The notes below the pieces were generated by a model. That model was not told the DNA's origin. It saw only the letters and a program-made list of their open reading frames with translations, and did no database searches. Shown here one piece after another: positions 2,741-56,228 of a DNA stretch of 64,000 nucleotides. The stretch's first letter is position 1; each line of letters begins with the position of its first letter. Source of the stretch: Candidatus Saccharibacteria bacterium UBA6040 (GTDB lineage Bacteria; Patescibacteriota; Saccharimonadia; Saccharimonadales; Saccharimonadaceae); the NCBI GenBank assembly GCA_002429245.1, contig DIZA01000002.1, positions 44,350-108,349 on the forward strand, in the 5' to 3' direction. The translations under genes and the position numbers were made by a program.

Positions 2741-3473
2741 GAAACTCTTTACCAAACCCCAGGACTTTAAGTGGTGGATGGGGATCGTGCTACCCGTATG
2801 GGTGCTGGCTGGCTTTGTCTTGGCGCAAGTCATCGTAGGGCTTATCCTTGTTCTTTTAAAGACGTTCGGCGTTACGTTCCAAGGCGTGAACGAATCGACT
2901 TTCCAGACGGTGGTATCGGCGGTTATTTATGTCCTGTCAATCTCGCTTGTCATCGGAGTGCCGTGGTTAGTTCGTCACTATCGAACGACGAAACAAGACC
3001 TTGGTGTCGATCAACCAGTTGCGTGGACGGATTTATTGTTGGCCCCAGCGGGCTTTATTGTCTACATACTTTTGTCGTTTGTTTTGACGACAATCGCGCC
3101 ACACATTATTCCGTTTTATAACGTTGATCAAGTGCAAGATACTGGCTTCACGGGACTTAGTCAGGGGTTTGAATACGTATTAGCCTTTGCGACACTGGTT
3201 ATTATCGCGCCGATTTCGGAAGAGCTTTTGTTCCGTGGCTATCTGTTAGGGAAGCTTCGTAAGCACGTTTCGACGTGGGTAGCGGTGCTTCTGACGAGTC
3301 TTTTATTTGGTGCAATCCACTTAGCTTGGAATGTTGGCGTTGATGTTTTTGCGCTCAGCATCGTGCTGTGTTTGCTTCGCATTCAAACTGGTCGCTTGTG
3401 GCCATCGATCTTACTTCACATGATTAAAAATGCGATCGCTTTCTACTTCCTCTTTATTAATCCACTTCTTTAA
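2718..3473 (+). CDS. CPBP (CAAX/Abi) family intramembrane metalloprotease
   Basis: EELLFRG, FGAIH, HMIKN motifs; multiple TM helices. Confidence 0.9.
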   Translation: MSQNSLSKKLFTKPQDFKWWMGIVLPVWVLAGFVLAQVIVGLILVLLKTFGVTFQGVNESTFQTVVSAVIYVLSISLVIGVPWLVRHYRTTKQDLGVDQPVAWTDLLLAPAGFIVYILLSFVLTTIAPHIIPFYNVDQVQDTGFTGLSQGFEYVLAFATLVIIAPISEELLFRGYLLGKLRKHVSTWVAVLLTSLLFGAIHLAWNVGVDVFALSIVLCLLRIQTGRLWPSILLHMIKNAIAFYFLFINPLL

Positions 3474-3493: not shown

Positions 3494-4732
3494 ATGAGAG
3501 TTACTAAGTTATTTACAAAGACAACCAAAGACGCACCTGCTGACGAAGTCGCTAAGAATGCGCAGCTTTTGATCCGTGCTGGCTACGTTTACAAGGTCAT
3601 GGCCGGTGTATATGCATATACACCACTTGGCCTTCGTGTCGTCGAAAATATTAAACAAATTGTTCGTGAAGAAATGAATGCTGTTGGCGGCCAAGAATTG
3701 ATCATGACGAACCTTCAGCCGAAAGAGGACTGGGAAATCACCACACGTTGGGATGACAGTGTCGTCGATATTTGGTTCAAGACGAAATTAAAAGACGATA
3801 CCGAAGTTGGGCTCGCGTGGTCACACGAAGAAGCCATCATGACTATGATGAAAAATTACATCAAGAGTTATAAAGATCTTCCTGCGTACGTGTATCAGTT
3901 CCAAACGAAGCTTCGTAACGAGGTTCGTGCGAAGAGCGGTATTATGCGCGGTCGTGAGTTCGTTATGAAAGATATGTACTCGCTTAGTACGGATGCTGAC
4001 CAACACGAGAAGTTCTATCAAGCGACAATTGGTGCCTATAAGAAAGTCTATGACCGCCTTGGGTTAGGCGAAGACACCTATGTGACATTTGCAAGCGGTG
4101 GTGCATTTACGCAGTTCAGCCACGAATTCCAAACAATTTGTGAAGCAGGCGAAGATGTCATTTACGTGAACCGCGAAAAGGGCATTGCAGTGAATGAAGA
4201 GGTGTTGAACGACGAAACGCTCGCGACGCTAGGCGTGACTCGGGATGAGTTAACGGAGACAAAAAGTGCTGAAGTAGGGAACATCTTTAACTTCGGAACT
4301 GAAAAGTCTGAGCAAATGGGTATCTATTACACCGATGAAAACGATCAAAAGGTACCTATCTTCCTTGGTTCGTACGGAATCGGTATTACTCGTGTCATGG
4401 GCGTGATCGTCGAGAAATTTGGCGACGACAAGGGTCTTGTTTGGCCGGAGAGCATTGCGCCGTACAAAGTCTACCTCGTGAGTATCGGAGATGTTGCAAC
4501 TCAGGCAGATGCACTGTATGATGAATTGACCTCAAAGGGAATCGAAGTATTGTACGACGATCGTGATGAGCGAGCGGGTGCAAAATTTGCCGATGCTGAA
4601 CTTCTCGGAATCCCATTCCGTGTCACTATCAGCGAACGACTCATTGCGGACCAAAAATTTGAATTCACCCCACGAAAAACTGGTGAATCAGAGGTATTGA
4701 CAGGTGATGAACTGCTTGCTAAACTAAGCTAA
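3494..4732 (+). CDS. proS: Prolyl-tRNA synthetase, short form without editing insertion
   Basis: YQFQTKLRNEVRAKSGIMRGREFVMKDMYS, GSYGIGITR, anticodon domain; 412 aa. Confidence 0.96.
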   Translation: MRVTKLFTKTTKDAPADEVAKNAQLLIRAGYVYKVMAGVYAYTPLGLRVVENIKQIVREEMNAVGGQELIMTNLQPKEDWEITTRWDDSVVDIWFKTKLKDDTEVGLAWSHEEAIMTMMKNYIKSYKDLPAYVYQFQTKLRNEVRAKSGIMRGREFVMKDMYSLSTDADQHEKFYQATIGAYKKVYDRLGLGEDTYVTFASGGAFTQFSHEFQTICEAGEDVIYVNREKGIAVNEEVLNDETLATLGVTRDELTETKSAEVGNIFNFGTEKSEQMGIYYTDENDQKVPIFLGSYGIGITRVMGVIVEKFGDDKGLVWPESIAPYKVYLVSIGDVATQADALYDELTSKGIEVLYDDRDERAGAKFADAELLGIPFRVTISERLIADQKFEFTPRKTGESEVLTGDELLAKLS

Positions 4733-4748
4733 ATAGAGATGCAAAGCG

Positions 4749-4780
4749 GGCGTCCTACGCTATATATGGTGTAGGGCGCC
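4749..4780 (+). terminator. Stem-loop after proS
   Basis: GGCGTCCTAC...GTAGGGCGCC stem; weak U tail. Confidence 0.55.
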
Positions 4781-4833
4781 TTCAAAACAAAGATTTTGAG
4801 TCGCAAAGCCACCTATTTGAAGAAAGAGAACTT

Positions 4834-5289
4834 ATGAAGAAACACTATCAAATCACTAGCGAAGGACAGAAGGAACTCGAAACCGAGTTAACTTCTCTTA
4901 AATCACGCCGCGGCGACGTTGCAGACAAGATTGCAGAAGCTCGTGACTTTGGTGACCTTAGCGAAAATGCCGAATATGACGCCGCTCGCGAAGAGCAGGG
5001 TCTTCTTGAAACCCGTATCGCTGAAATCGAAGACATCCTACGTAATGCAGACATCATCAAGGGCGGCCCCAAGGCACTTGTTGGACTTGGAAGCAAAGTC
5101 GCACTGAAGATGGGAAACAAGACCGTGACATACACGATTGTTGGTCCTGTCGAAGCAAACCCGCTTGAGGGTAAGATTAGCAACGAATCACCAATCGGAC
5201 TCGCGCTTTTCGGACGCAAGGTTGGCGATGACGCTGAGATTACGACTCCCAAAGGTACTGTTAAGTACAAGATCGCTCAGATTAACTAG
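4834..5289 (+). CDS. greA: Transcription elongation factor GreA
   Basis: GDLSENAEYDAARE, ISNESPIGLAL. Confidence 0.98.
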   Translation: MKKHYQITSEGQKELETELTSLKSRRGDVADKIAEARDFGDLSENAEYDAAREEQGLLETRIAEIEDILRNADIIKGGPKALVGLGSKVALKMGNKTVTYTIVGPVEANPLEGKISNESPIGLALFGRKVGDDAEITTPKGTVKYKIAQIN

Positions 5290-5298
5290 AAGTATTAA

Positions 5299-5487
5299 GG
5301 CAAACCTGAGTTACTTCAGGCTCCTCTTAAACCAATTCGAAAACACGATATAACTCATGTCGTGTTTTCTTGTATTCTGCGTAACTCGACTTCGTCTCAA
5401 ACATACTCGAATAGGCATGAAAACCCTCCATGAGTTATTCGGTTTTCTCACAGGTTTATTCGTAGCCTGAAGTAGCTCGGGTTTGCC
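5299..5487 (+). ncRNA. Candidate 6S RNA-like rod (189 nt)
   Basis: 24-bp closing stem 5299-5322/5464-5487 with two G-U pairs on + strand; 16x16 central internal loop; second stem 5339-5359/5429-5447; apical stems. Confidence 0.55.
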
Positions 5488-6090
5488 CAGCGCAACCTTT
5501 TTGTTATGATGAATCAATGAAACATGCAGTTATTGTTCACGGTTTTAAGGGTGCGCCTGACACAAACTGGAAGCCTTGGTTGAAGCGTGAGCTGGAAGCT
5601 GGTGGCTTCCGTGTGGACGTACCAACGATGCCGGATACCGAACATCCCGATGTCTCAGCTTGGGTGGATATGCTCGCTCGGACAGTCGGCGGTGCTGATG
5701 CTGAAGAGGTATATCTTATAGGTCACAGTCTTGGATGTATCACGATACTGAAATATCTTGAGAGTCTCGGCAACCAACAGAAAGTGAAAGCGTGTGTATT
5801 TGTCGCAGGATTCAGCCAAAGATTCGATGGATACGAAGGTGGACATGATAGCTTTTTTGCTAAATCACTTGATTGGGAGAAGGTTAAAAGTCATTGTGAT
5901 ACTTTTATTGCAGTTCACTCAAAGGACGACCAGAATGTTGGATTTGATCAATTGAAGATCTTTGAAGATAATCTAGGTGCGAAAGCAATTTTGGTTGATG
6001 GGATGGGACACTTCGGTTCGGCAGATGGCGTTTTCGAAGTTCCGCTTATCAAGGAAGTGCTAGTGAACATATAGATTTGCCCAGCGCAAC
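5482..6090. repeat. 15-bp direct repeat TTTGCCCAGCGCAAC at 5482-5496 and 6076-6090 flanking the hydrolase gene
   Basis: Exact match read from sequence. Confidence 0.95.
5517..6074 (+). CDS. RBBP9/YdeN family alpha/beta hydrolase
   Basis: VHGFKG, GHSLG nucleophile elbow, HSKDD, GMGHF. Confidence 0.9.
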   Translation: MKHAVIVHGFKGAPDTNWKPWLKRELEAGGFRVDVPTMPDTEHPDVSAWVDMLARTVGGADAEEVYLIGHSLGCITILKYLESLGNQQKVKACVFVAGFSQRFDGYEGGHDSFFAKSLDWEKVKSHCDTFIAVHSKDDQNVGFDQLKIFEDNLGAKAILVDGMGHFGSADGVFEVPLIKEVLVNI

Positions 6091-6187
6091 TTGGTGCCTG
6101 GTTGTGAAACATCTGGACCCCGTGATTTAAAGGGAGCGACAGCCCCGCTAAATCCGGCGGGAAGCCGTTTCACGAACAGGCACCAAG
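6090..6187 (+). ncRNA. Unassigned structured RNA (three-way junction with complementary loops) upstream of lysS
   Basis: 21-nt arms 6090-6110/6167-6187 (1 mismatch, 1 G-U); CCCGC/GCGGG hairpin; loops GATTTA (6124-6129) and TAAATC (6149-6154) complementary. Confidence 0.5.
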
Positions 6188-6231
6188 CTGGGGTGGAGAC
6201 TCAAGGGGATTATGGTATACTTTAACCTGAT

Positions 6232-7743
6232 ATGGCAACACTAAAAGACTTCCGTGACGAACGACTTCGCAAGCTCGAAGACCTAAAAGGATTAGGATTT
6301 AATCCTTATCCTGCTGAATCGCATCGAACGCACAATGCGGGTGCGGTTATTGCTGACTTTGATGCACTTGAAAACCAAACCGTTACCGTTGCAGGGCGTA
6401 TTACCGCAATTCGTAAGTTCGGAAAGCTCGCATTCATCGTTGTTAAAGACTTTAGCGGTCAAGTACAACTGTATTTGAACGAATCTGAAGTTGAAGGACG
6501 GGATGTTCCTTCGAATCGTCTTGGTATCGAAGACCTACCGCTACTTGATACCGGCGACTTTATTGAAGCCACTGGATCTGTTGGGAAGAGTAAGACTGGC
6601 GAGATCTCTGTCTTCGTCAAGCAAATCCGCTTGCTTACTAAAACGCTTCGCCCAATGCCAAGCGCACAAGAAGGCTTTACGAACAAAGAAGAGCGCATGC
6701 GTCGTCGTTACATCGATATGAACGTGAACCAAGAGGTTCGTGATCGCTTTATTCGTCGCAGTAAGTTTTGGCAGGCGACTCGTGATTTCTTGAACACAAA
6801 TGATTTTATTGAAGTAAACGTTCCTGTGCTTGAGCACACCACCGGTGGCGCTGATGCGACTCCTTTTGTGACACACATGGATGCTTTGGACCAAGACTTT
6901 TACCTACGTATTAGTCATGAACTTCCTTTGAAACGTCTTATCGGTGCTGGCTTTGAAAAAGTCTACGATATTGGTGCACGATTTAGGAACGAAAACTACA
7001 GCGACGAACACCTTCCTGAGCACGTTGCGATGGAATGGTACTGGGCATACGCTAACTGGCAAGACGGCCGTAAGTTTATGGAAGACATGTACAAAGATGT
7101 TTTGAAAAAAACATTTGGGACACTGCAATTTAAGCTTGGTAAGTTCGATGTGAACATGGACGGCGACTGGGAGATCTGGGACTACGCGACCGTTATTAAA
7201 GAACGATATGGCATCGACGTGTTTGAATCGTCCCTCGATGATGTCAAGAAAGCACTGGCTGATAACAAACTTGAAGTTGAACAAACTGAAAACCGCGCTC
7301 GCGGTATCGACAAGCTTTGGAAGAACATTCGTAAGGATGTGGCGGGACCTGTCTGGCTGGTTAATACACCGACATTCATTAGTCCTTTGTCTAAAACAAA
7401 TCCTGACGATGCGCGTACGGTACAACGTTTTCAGCCTGTCATTGCTGGGTCTGAACTCGGTAACGGATTCTCTGAATTGAACGACCCGGTTGACCAACTG
7501 GATCGTTTCGTCGAGCAACAAGGTATGCGCGACAGTGGTGATGATGAAGCAATGATGCTTGATATCGATTACGTTGAAATGCTCGAATACGGTATGCCAC
7601 CAGCTGTAGGTTGGGGATATAGTGAACGTGTCTTCTGGATCTTTGAAGGTGTCACTGCTCGGGAAGGCGTGCCTTTCCCGCAACTTCGTCACGAATACGA
7701 CGAAGTCACCAAGGGTCTCTACCCTGATGTCAAATTCGACTAA
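6232..7743 (+). CDS. lysS: Lysyl-tRNA synthetase (class II)
   Basis: OB-fold anticodon domain, GGADATPFVTH, YLRISHEL, ELGNGFSELNDP, YGMPP. Confidence 0.98.
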   Translation: MATLKDFRDERLRKLEDLKGLGFNPYPAESHRTHNAGAVIADFDALENQTVTVAGRITAIRKFGKLAFIVVKDFSGQVQLYLNESEVEGRDVPSNRLGIEDLPLLDTGDFIEATGSVGKSKTGEISVFVKQIRLLTKTLRPMPSAQEGFTNKEERMRRRYIDMNVNQEVRDRFIRRSKFWQATRDFLNTNDFIEVNVPVLEHTTGGADATPFVTHMDALDQDFYLRISHELPLKRLIGAGFEKVYDIGARFRNENYSDEHLPEHVAMEWYWAYANWQDGRKFMEDMYKDVLKKTFGTLQFKLGKFDVNMDGDWEIWDYATVIKERYGIDVFESSLDDVKKALADNKLEVEQTENRARGIDKLWKNIRKDVAGPVWLVNTPTFISPLSKTNPDDARTVQRFQPVIAGSELGNGFSELNDPVDQLDRFVEQQGMRDSGDDEAMMLDIDYVEMLEYGMPPAVGWGYSERVFWIFEGVTAREGVPFPQLRHEYDEVTKGLYPDVKFD

Positions 7744-7796
7744 GGGTTCAAACAAGCACTAACACTTAGCCTGATTTTGCTCTATAGTAGAACCAT

Positions 7797-8501
7797 ATGA
7801 TTGAGATTAAGGGCATTACGAAAACGTACGGGAAAAAGCAGAATGCTTTTTTGGCACTGGATAATATTAGTTTTGAAATTCCAGATGGAACGACAATTGC
7901 GATTATCGGAAAATCGGGAAGTGGTAAATCCACTTTGATGCACGCCATGAGCGGACTCGATCGTCCTGAAATTGGTGAAGTTGTGATTGATGGCGAAAAT
8001 ATTTTGACGCTAAAACAGCGCCAGATTGATGCCTTCCGTGCCTCAAAAATGAGCTTTATTTTCCAGAGTTTCTTTATCCAGCCAAATGAAACGTGTTATG
8101 ACAACGTCGTATTGCCACTTGAAATCGCCGAAGTTCCCCGCGGAGAACGACGCGCCAAAGTCGAAGCGGCGCTTGCTGCGGTTGAACTGACGGACAAGAT
8201 TAAATCGAAAGCCGCGAATCTTTCTGGTGGCCAAAAACAACGCCTTGCGATTGCCCGTGCCATTGTGAACGAACCAAAGATTTTATTTGCTGACGAACCG
8301 ACTGGAAATCTCGACTCGACAACAGGTGAGGTGGTTGAAGATTTCTTATTTAACTATTCGAAAGAAAACAACGCTACGCTGATTGTGGTGACGCACGACG
8401 CTGACCTTGCAAATAAATGTGACGCGCAAATTGAAATCGTTGACGGTAAGATCCACTCAACCAAGGGTTTGAAGAAAACTAGTGAAGGGAAGGCGGCATA
8501 A
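7797..8501 (+). CDS. ABC transporter ATP-binding protein (LolD/MacB type)
   Basis: GKSGSGKS, LSGGQKQR, FADEPTGNLD. Confidence 0.95.
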   Translation: MIEIKGITKTYGKKQNAFLALDNISFEIPDGTTIAIIGKSGSGKSTLMHAMSGLDRPEIGEVVIDGENILTLKQRQIDAFRASKMSFIFQSFFIQPNETCYDNVVLPLEIAEVPRGERRAKVEAALAAVELTDKIKSKAANLSGGQKQRLAIARAIVNEPKILFADEPTGNLDSTTGEVVEDFLFNYSKENNATLIVVTHDADLANKCDAQIEIVDGKIHSTKGLKKTSEGKAA

Positions 8502-28107: not shown

Positions 28108-28326
28108 TAGCATTTCGGTGCCAATAACAATTCGGCAAACAACCTAACCCATTTCTTACTAAAGAGGTGGCATGGTCAAAAAAACGCGTAAACCATACTG
28201 ATCCCGTCGTTCAGGTTCGTTTACGCGTCATGGAGGGAAACTTTCATGGGGCCCTTAAAAAGGTCCGCTTAGCGGCGGGTTTTGTGTACCCTCGGCTAAG
28301 CAACTTTTAAAGGGTTAGGAGGATAT
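28108..28326 (+). ncRNA. Highly structured 5' leader or ncRNA upstream of a small membrane peptide
   Basis: TGC-TACAAT at 28093-28101; four abutting hairpins 28183-28228, 28229-28248 (GAAA loop), 28249-28266, 28267-28301; CCTAACCC 28143-28150 pairs with GGGTTAGG 28312-28319 over the SD. Confidence 0.6.
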
Positions 28327-55562: not shown

Positions 55563-56228
55563 GCAAGCTCGTGACTATGTAGTAAAAATCATAGCCCCCC
55601 GCTCCTCTCTTTTCTCACACTCAATGTTCTATTTTTGTTCTACTGGTGTGTGTTTGTGAAAAAAACATATAACAATACACAAAACGCAAAATGTCAAAAA
55701 GCAGGGTAGTGGAGGAGAATAGGGGGAGTAGGAATTATTTCACGGGCCATGGTTAGGCCGCGGCGATTTGGATAAGTGTGGATAACTTATGTTGTAGTAT
55801 GTATTAAATGCGACATTAAATACAACACGATATAGACCTAAGGCTACATGCCATACATAGGCGTGGATATGATCGTAAATAACAGTGTAACAAGTATGTT
55901 TGTAAACGCATGCGTACAATAACAGTGGCAAACCTCCAGTACTACACTACTCCAGAGGTATAAGTAATCAACTATGATTAGTATAGTCTATGTCGTAAAA
56001 GATATATTGTGCGACGTTAAATCTATATTCATGTAGCTACCTACTAATCACACTTGCACTCGATTTATCCCACTGACTTTCGTGTTTTTGTTTTTAATTA
56101 TTGCTACTACGTCCTATCGCACTATGCATTCCGTTTCGTGGAATTGCCTGCGCGTTTATATATGTACGTAGCTTTGTTTTTATGGCTGTTCGATTATGTT
56201 CTATTTTTGTTCTATAAACTTTCAGAAC
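55563..56228. promoter_or_regulatory. AT-rich non-coding region with DnaA boxes and direct repeats
   Basis: TGTGGATAA 55777-55785, TTTGGATAA 55767-55775, TGTGAAAAA 55655-55663; 19-bp repeat 55624/56196; 13-bp near repeat 55809/56010. Confidence 0.55.

Follow-up and report, generated by a model that had tools for sequence, protein, structure and literature searches.

A promoter and hydrolase cassette between the copies of a 15-bp direct repeat in the greA–lysS accessory-gene slot of Saccharibacteria

In the genome of Candidatus Saccharibacteria bacterium UBA6040, a promoter and a single hydrolase gene lie between two copies of a 15-bp direct repeat in the interval from greA to lysS. Relatives have or lack this cassette in what is an accessory-gene slot, and the two copies probably mark the joints of that polymorphism, which would arise by recombination between short repeats. 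The locus was found in a 64,000-nucleotide stretch of contig DIZA01000002.1 (hereafter the window), which belongs to an assembly of 865,748 bp (866 kb) in 7 contigs from a soil Saccharibacteria genus; the names of protein clusters suggest Candidatus Microsaccharimonas and its relatives. Its gene order is proS, greA, a 189-nt rod (RNA1), a gene for a 185-aa hydrolase, a hairpin of ~116 nt (RNA2) and lysS (Table 1). Below, G000 is the genome of the window, G0xx are relative genomes, and Lxxx are retrieved loci or contigs.

The two copies of the 15-mer TTTGCCCAGCGCAAC are spaced 594 bp apart, and identity is lost sharply at both of their ends. No further copy was found in the genome with 1 mismatch allowed. 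Between the copies there are a promoter-like site, whose –35 box sits inside copy 1, and the hydrolase open reading frame (ORF), and nothing else. The last 10 nt of copy 2 pair with positions 6187–6196, and the homologous nucleotides of the relatives G044 and L086 pair likewise. The first-pass annotation of this DNA had reported the duplication, a 594-bp unit made of a promoter and a YdeN-type hydrolase without a recombinase, and two flanking structured hairpins. These observations were confirmed: the repeat is exact, an ORF scan and the PF06821 match agree on the content of the unit, and both hairpins are real as judged by their z-scores. The interpretation that it placed on them was partly supported, as described below.

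The closest genome compared, G044, has GreA and LysS 98.7% and 95% identical to those of G000, and carries the allele greA–RNA1–TTTGCCCGACACAGC–RNA2–lysS, in which one homologue of the 15-mer is all that joins the two abutting rods. What separates the G000 allele from that of G044 is precisely one copy of the repeat and 579 bp; this ties the repeat mechanistically to the insertion or deletion. No homologue of the hydrolase was found anywhere in the 99%-complete genome of G044. An empty site with a single 15-mer, or different cargo, in the same interval of related genomes was what the first-pass annotation had anticipated, and both were found. An assembly artefact was ruled out, as an ENA contig and a Logan contig of a different run, assembled independently, have exactly the same locus sequence.

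The repeat by itself would not be decisive, because genomes shuffled under a Markov model carry ~1–2 exact direct repeats of ≥15 bp within 3 kb per genome. In the real genome short-range exact repeats of this length are ~20 times commoner than in the shuffles, and many of them are repeated promoters or terminators around single genes. For the present pair a chance origin was rejected, since the boundaries of the G044 indel fall exactly on the repeat.

The greA–lysS interval is variable well beyond this pair of alleles. The greA gene adjoins the slot in 30 of 31 relatives, and in many of 30 relatives the spacer to lysS is just 12–105 nt and is free of either hairpin. Elsewhere the slot holds RNA1 alone (G002); RNA1 with a low-molecular-weight (LMW) phosphatase and an inverted second RNA1-type hairpin (G007); RNA1 with a 156-aa ORF of unknown kind (L091) or with a 130-aa ORF on the opposite strand (L095); RNA1 with three genes and an inverted RNA1-type hairpin (L144); an ABC transporter and a lysS paralogue (G016); a 467-aa ORF (G013); a pilin-like gene (G008, L148); or ORFs of unknown kind (G009, L146). 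A choline-kinase-like gene is the cargo of other alleles, and at least 8 unrelated cargos other than the hydrolase were counted among the relatives. These alleles show that the slot is an accessory-gene hotspot, which may be empty, hold hairpins only, or carry one of at least 8 unrelated cargos. The G016 slot (L074, 3159–4493) consists of an ABC-transporter operon and a second, highly divergent LysRS-like gene of class II (444 aa, 27% identity), the latter directly upstream of the normal lysS.

The cargo in the window is a predicted serine hydrolase of family PF06821 (Ser_hydrolase), with a full-length profile match (E = 5e-25; 88.8 bits against a cut-off of 22; residues 5–182) and a GHSLG motif at the nucleophile elbow of its translation. 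Its ATG lies 6 nt past the –10 box, so that the transcript would be near-leaderless. In L086 the slot hydrolase is 89% identical in amino-acid sequence, and the layout RNA1–promoter–hydrolase–RNA2 has the same junctions as in G000. In L087 and L088 the hydrolase is 66% identical and the arrangement is greA–RNA1–promoter–hydrolase–lysS, with neither RNA2 nor the repeat. The three slot hydrolases (66–89% identity) form one clade with support of 95/82 in a tree of 45 homologues, and homologues of 62–64% identity sit in unrelated contexts. The tree and the shared layout show that, in one lineage of alleles, the gene has long resided in this slot. The first-pass annotation had read the unit as an insertion; that the hydrolase is a newcomer to the slot is not supported, since in L086 and L087 it occupies this slot behind the same promoter. 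It had also named as contrary to its reading the combination of an ancestral hydrolase and no empty-site allele; the hydrolase does look ancestral to the slot, and the empty allele is present in G044.

The 15-mer was then compared across alleles. Its homologues are TTTGCCCGACACAGC, present singly in G044, and TTTGCCGGGTAAAGT and TTTTCCCAGCACAGT in L086, the second of these being the homologue of copy 2. Within L086 the two copies match at 10 of the 15 positions. Both G000 copies carry G at position 11 and A at 14, and neither base is found there in G044 or in either L086 copy. Between lineages 4–7 of the 15 positions differ, a drift at about the neutral rate, and the 15-mer appears to be without strong sequence constraint. 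Because both copies share G000-specific substitutions, and the L086 repeat has decayed to 10/15, recent recombination at the 15-mers in the G000 lineage, younger than the G000/G044 split, is required. By our own calculation, the probability that neutral evolution retained 15/15 identity at a cassette synonymous divergence (dS) of 0.5 is ~5e-4.

So-called tail homologues are found 3′ of RNA1 in L086, L091 and G007, before the same or other cargo. By inspection, no 15-mer surrounds the other slot cargos in L091 or L087, and in G007 there is an inverted 11/15 match to the tail, borne by the inverted RNA1-type copy. The repeated sequence is thus shown to be boundary sequence and not transposon sequence. 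That the tail forms a mini terminator hairpin is a weak idea: its fold is weak (–2.5 to –5.2 kcal/mol), with z not significant except in L091. A longer original duplication was also considered, by aligning the sequence after copy 2 (the left arm of RNA2) with the promoter after copy 1, and was rejected for too weak a similarity.

The divergence along the locus is uneven. For G000 and G044, dS is 0.34 in greA and 0.75 in lysS; for G000 and L086 it is 1.33 in lysS and 0.50 in the hydrolase; these values come from 150–380 codons and are noisy, and the argument on polarity rests on few sequences. Given that the hydrolase dS of 0.50 contrasts with the lysS dS of 1.33 for the same pair, the cassette has moved laterally between lineages after their split. 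In G044, ProS shares only 71% identity with its G000 counterpart, beside a GreA of 98.7%; the flanks are therefore mosaic, with a recombination breakpoint between proS and greA. L087 has the opposite pattern (ProS 92%, LysS 79%).

As to the event in the G000 lineage, we slightly favour the view that the cassette entered, or re-entered, an empty RNA1/RNA2 junction. That the cassette was kept and its repeat homogenised, with G044 as the deletion product, has in our estimate a little under an even chance. A sliding-window test for a G000 hybrid, composed of a G044-like backbone and an L086-like insert, found RNA2 about equally similar to both and no clear breakpoint.

In the mechanism that we favour, filled and empty alleles would interconvert by recombination across the short repeat. 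Loss would proceed by replication slippage or short-homology deletion. Gain would follow when DNA of related strains is integrated in a Campbell-like or a homology-facilitated illegitimate event. The recombination would depend on host functions together with natural transformation, and no dedicated integrase or transposase would be involved. No transposase was found in the 594-bp unit, whose ORF content is the hydrolase alone, and no tyrosine recombinase either, the one in the genome (PF00589) being on another contig. Terminal inverted repeats were not seen on inspection of the unit ends (CTTTTTGTTAT... and ...ACATATAGA), and no other copies of the unit DNA were found in the genome.

Several points weigh against this mechanism. 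Short-homology recombination alone leaves the perfect, sharp-edged copies of G000 without an account: a Campbell-type event between non-identical 15-mers would yield chimeric copies, and gene conversion on a 15-bp scale is not known to be efficient. How the second copy came to lie beside RNA2 is likewise left without an account. The shared junction positions of G000 and L086 are compatible with a site-specific system, too. Finally, just three alleles with RNA2 at the locus are available, and polarity depends on few sequences and on noisy dS from short genes.

A simpler history is pure loss, in which the filled state was ancestral to G000, G044 and L086, G044 lost the cassette by slippage, nothing was inserted in G000, and conversion or chance made the repeat identical there. 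Counting for this explanation are the well-established deletion of DNA between short direct repeats, the single old clade of slot hydrolases, the full layout in L086, and the restriction of RNA2-type elements at the locus, among the sampled alleles, to G000, L086 and G044. In addition, the tail is contiguous with the promoter in 4–5 allele types, so that the tail–RNA2 junction of G044 looks derived. Nevertheless, pure loss is rather unlikely: neutral retention of 15/15 identity after ≥0.25 substitutions per site has the very low probability calculated above, and the two G000-specific substitutions are found in both copies. Moreover, the hydrolase dS of 0.50 between G000 and L086 is no older than the G000–G044 flanks, and since it falls within their range of 0.34–0.75 the composite allele need not predate the G000/G044 split.

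The main rival, to which we give a low probability, is a site-specific mobile cassette, in which the 15-mer would be an att-like core and a recombinase acting in trans (Xer-like or unrecognised) would move a circular cassette. A perfect, sharp-edged direct repeat with lineage-specific substitutions in both copies, a single 15-mer in the empty site, a cassette without its own recombinase, and the same junction positions in G000 and L086 despite a flank dS of 1.33 would all be accounted for, and hairpins do stand at cargo borders, with inverted pairs in G007, L144 and G016. Against this, the genome has just the one tyrosine recombinase; the 15-mer occurs nowhere else in the genome and is not reused around the other slot cargos inspected; it drifts about neutrally (4–7 of 15 positions differing, and 10/15 within L086); and promoter function accounts for copy 1. 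A broader scheme is a cassette-exchange system, served by a recombinase in trans or by none, in which the hairpins would be the borders and their foot sequences the crossovers; repeated excision and re-insertion would keep the repeat perfect, and cores entering genes would take an inverted copy of the adjacent sequence as their arm. This we regard as quite improbable.

A transposon-like insertion with a 15-bp target-site duplication, produced by staggered cleavage at the foot of two neighbouring cruciforms, would explain why the perfect, sharp-edged repeat spans the exact junction of the two rods, but it is very improbable, given that the unit has neither terminal inverted repeats nor a transposase, that 15 bp is atypically long for such a duplication, that copy 1 and the promoter are contiguous and homologous before other cargo (so that the left 'end' of the unit is resident sequence), that L086 has the same junction with a decayed repeat, and that no other copy of the unit or its ends was seen in searches of the genome and its relatives.

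Recombination across a short repeat in an accessory-gene slot, the explanation preferred here, may be compared with several known systems. Replacement and additive genomic islands are described for marine bacteria. The concept of hotspots of horizontal gene transfer (HGT) between core genes is reportedly that of Oliveira and colleagues, 2017. Flexible genomic islets and hotspots resemble the greA–lysS slot in their conserved flanks (here proS–greA to the left, and to the right lysS with an ABC transporter) around many or no cargos, in the mosaic nature of the flanks, and in the lack of a mobility gene inside the slot. As in such hotspots, conserved flanks with varied or no cargo were found together with signs of flank recombination (the ProS/GreA contrast and the discordant dS). 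The slot differs in its scale (one gene, 0.6 kb), in its borders of hairpins and fused terminators and promoters, and in the exact 15-bp repeat at the joints of the indel.

Deletion and duplication between short direct repeats, by slippage or RecA-independent recombination, are established in Escherichia coli genetics. The alleles here likewise differ by one repeat and the intervening DNA, with the repeats ~600 bp apart beside strong hairpins; unlike in that process, the repeat is perfect despite an old cassette, and slippage accounts for loss, not gain. Islands at the 3′ ends of tRNA and tmRNA genes share with this locus a direct repeat that reaches into the 3′ end of a structured element and that is single in the empty site. 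Unlike them, this locus lacks an integrase, what stands in the place of the RNA gene is not conserved (5 of 40 genomes), a –35 box lies within the repeat, and the cargo is a single old resident gene. The proposal in the first-pass annotation that the hairpin 3′ end serves as an integration site in the manner of tRNA and tmRNA ends is thus not borne out: the target is no conserved RNA gene, and the only tyrosine recombinase is encoded elsewhere. Integron attC cassettes and Xer-dependent pdif modules are alike in being single-gene units without a recombinase, bordered by hairpins, with varied cargos at one site. They differ in that no IntI-type enzyme was found here, the cassette brings a promoter of its own, and the 15-mer does not recur around other cargos; by eye only, no GTTRRRY/RYYYAAC pair, R′/R″ sites or 28-bp dif-like sites were seen at the joints.

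Gene content varies in Saccharibacteria even though their genomes are tiny and contain few recognisable mobile elements. If the proposed mechanism is true, the locus would be a base-pair-level model of accessory-gene turnover in reduced, naturally competent episymbionts. The main finding is nonetheless a further example of an accessory-gene hotspot with a short-repeat indel; the hairpin families are less expected, and the in-frame hairpin element in aminoacyl-tRNA synthetase genes may matter more than the cassette.

RNA1 belongs to a family of long hairpins. Its 16 copies have in common an apical core of ~50 nt and a CTCACAG internal loop, and their long outer stems are wholly different. Only 5 of the 40 genus genomes contain this core; G002, G007 and G016 have 2–3 copies, some of them inverted or at other loci. 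Over the 16 copies, read in the orientation of the element, the helices contain 32 G–T against 56 A–C mismatches, so there is no sense-strand excess of G–U. Neither RNA1 nor RNA2 has an Rfam match at E ≤ 1 in positions 4000–8000, or at gathering score in the window. The first-pass annotation had called the first rod 6S-like; a 6S RNA was rejected on the lack of an Rfam 6S match, the sporadic distribution, the multiple copies and the lack of a G–U strand bias.

Some RNA1-type elements occur as inverted pairs. Pairs bracket cargo in L083 of G007 (2561–2698 and 3180–3341) and in L144 (~255–430 and ~2295–2465), and at another locus, L137 of G016, a pair surrounds a short spacer (~1440–1625 and ~1655–1830). 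In L087, lysS is followed by an inverted, incomplete core of the RNA1 type (5215–5272), so that RNA1-type elements bracket the hydrolase and lysS there.

RNA2 represents a second family. Its core of 66–68 nt is GC-rich (GAAAC...GAAGCCGTTTC; GAAACATCTGCAGCCCGAG...GCGAAGCCGTTTC) and dispersed in this Saccharibacteria family; an 81%-identical core is found inside leuS of G000 itself (C6:2390–2457, L061). In relatives, RNA2-type cores lie in frame in leuS (after EIEF), cysS (before GFPGWHLEC) and mnmA (loci L064–L073, L105 and L151). The copies within genes are always in frame, occur in either orientation at the same site, and are open in both orientations. Their inverted arms of 16–22 bp are locus-specific and follow the host gene's own codons. 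An alignment of 13 copies folds as one long rod, with 3–6 pair types per arm position. Among the 30 of 40 leuS segments of the genus that were read, 11 carry the insert and 19 lack it (G044 included); the remaining 10 show the split-match pattern of insert-free genes, suggesting that it is missing there too. In several lineages the leuS insert is partly deleted. The leuS gene of G000 (L061, 1682–4609) also has a NUDIX domain (PF00293, residues 398–519) inserted after the editing domain.

Identification of RNA2 as a signal recognition particle (SRP) RNA or as a T-box or other lysS leader was rejected, as it has no Rfam match, lies upstream of the lysS –10 box, and has the same core inside coding genes. 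The RNA2-type element at the leuS locus likewise gave no Rfam match. An exact-pattern metagenome scan with the lysS-linked core returned two chance matches, in unrelated high-GC coding DNA. Searches of the literature on Saccharibacteria and Patescibacteria found no description of an RNA2-type element with a conserved core and locus-specific arms.

Both families consist of sporadic, probably selfish hairpin elements (or accessory RNAs) and are not conserved noncoding RNA (ncRNA) genes, and we infer that they mark module boundaries. The ancestral tandem ncRNA locus envisaged in the first-pass annotation finds no support in these distributions, with the short spacers of many relatives, the sporadic occurrence of RNA1, and the RNA2 core inside coding genes.

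The nearest parallel to the RNA2-type elements is offered by the Rickettsia palindromic elements (RPEs), said to insert in frame into genes (reportedly Ogata and colleagues, 2000), and by other MITE-like palindromes. Like these, the RNA2-type elements are short and palindromic, occur between genes as well as in frame (in leuS, cysS and mnmA), are open both ways, would be tolerated as a surface-loop peptide, and decay by internal deletion. They differ in that the ~68-nt core alone is conserved and the 16–22-bp arms differ at each site, in their low copy number (2 in G000), and in a known range of one Saccharibacteria family. Dispersed in-frame copies with presence and absence among relatives were thus found, as expected of elements of this kind, whereas the whole element, including terminal repeats, is not shared between sites.

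The coordinates of the features of the locus are collected in Table 1.

Table 1. Features of the greA–lysS locus, numbered from the first nucleotide of the window.
Feature	Position	Strand	Details
proS	3494–4732		left of greA in the gene order
greA	4834–5289	+	PF03449 and PF01272; conserved left flank of the variable slot
RNA1-type long hairpin element	5299–5487	+	189-nt rod; dG –83 kcal/mol, z = –10.6
Terminator-like hairpin and T-run	5339–5369	+	in the 5′ half of RNA1; candidate greA terminator
15-mer copy 1, TTTGCCCAGCGCAAC	5482–5496	+	final 6 nt of the RNA1 rod and the 9 nt after it; holds the –35 hexamer TTGCCC
Putative cassette promoter	5483–5510	+	TTGCCC at 5483, 16-nt spacer, TG-extended TATGAT ending at 5510
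Predicted PF06821 hydrolase	5517–6074	+	185 aa; YdeN/RBBP9-type alpha/beta serine hydrolase; cargo
15-mer copy 2, TTTGCCCAGCGCAAC	6076–6090	+	begins 1 nt past the hydrolase stop; last 10 nt are the foot of the RNA2 rod
RNA2-type hairpin element	6081–6196	+	dG about –69 kcal/mol, z = –4.9; core GAAAC...GTTTC at 6106–6171
lysS promoter-like site	6194–6221	+	TGGAGA, 16 nt, TG-extended TATACT; 3′ of RNA2
lysS	6232–7743	+	PF00152 and PF01336; conserved right flank of the slot

The junction of hairpin and promoter seen here recurs in the genome. The standard gene border is a terminator hairpin whose T-run merges into a TG-extended –10 box (TGnTAnnAT), with an ATG ~8 nt further on; examples are at 5497–5510 of the window and at C4:29315, 33360 and 37256. 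The strict motif of this boundary type, TTTTTGnTAnnAT, has 23 instances in the genome, usually directly after a hairpin. Such fused hairpin, T-run and –10 borders would imply that the mRNAs of this genome are mostly leaderless.

The only Rfam family in the window is a LOOT RNA (RF03000) at 28141–28266 (68.8 bits). G000 encodes a second PF06821 hydrolase paralogue, 30% identical (C5:224237–224767). Directly upstream of it lies a module of ~770 bp, bracketed by a 37-bp exact direct repeat that is a terminator-like palindrome (C5:223415–223451 and 224187–224223). Other short-range repeats in G000 are found at C5:219989/221328 (36 bp), at C7:35289/37169 (23 bp), and at 55624/56196 of the window (19 bp).

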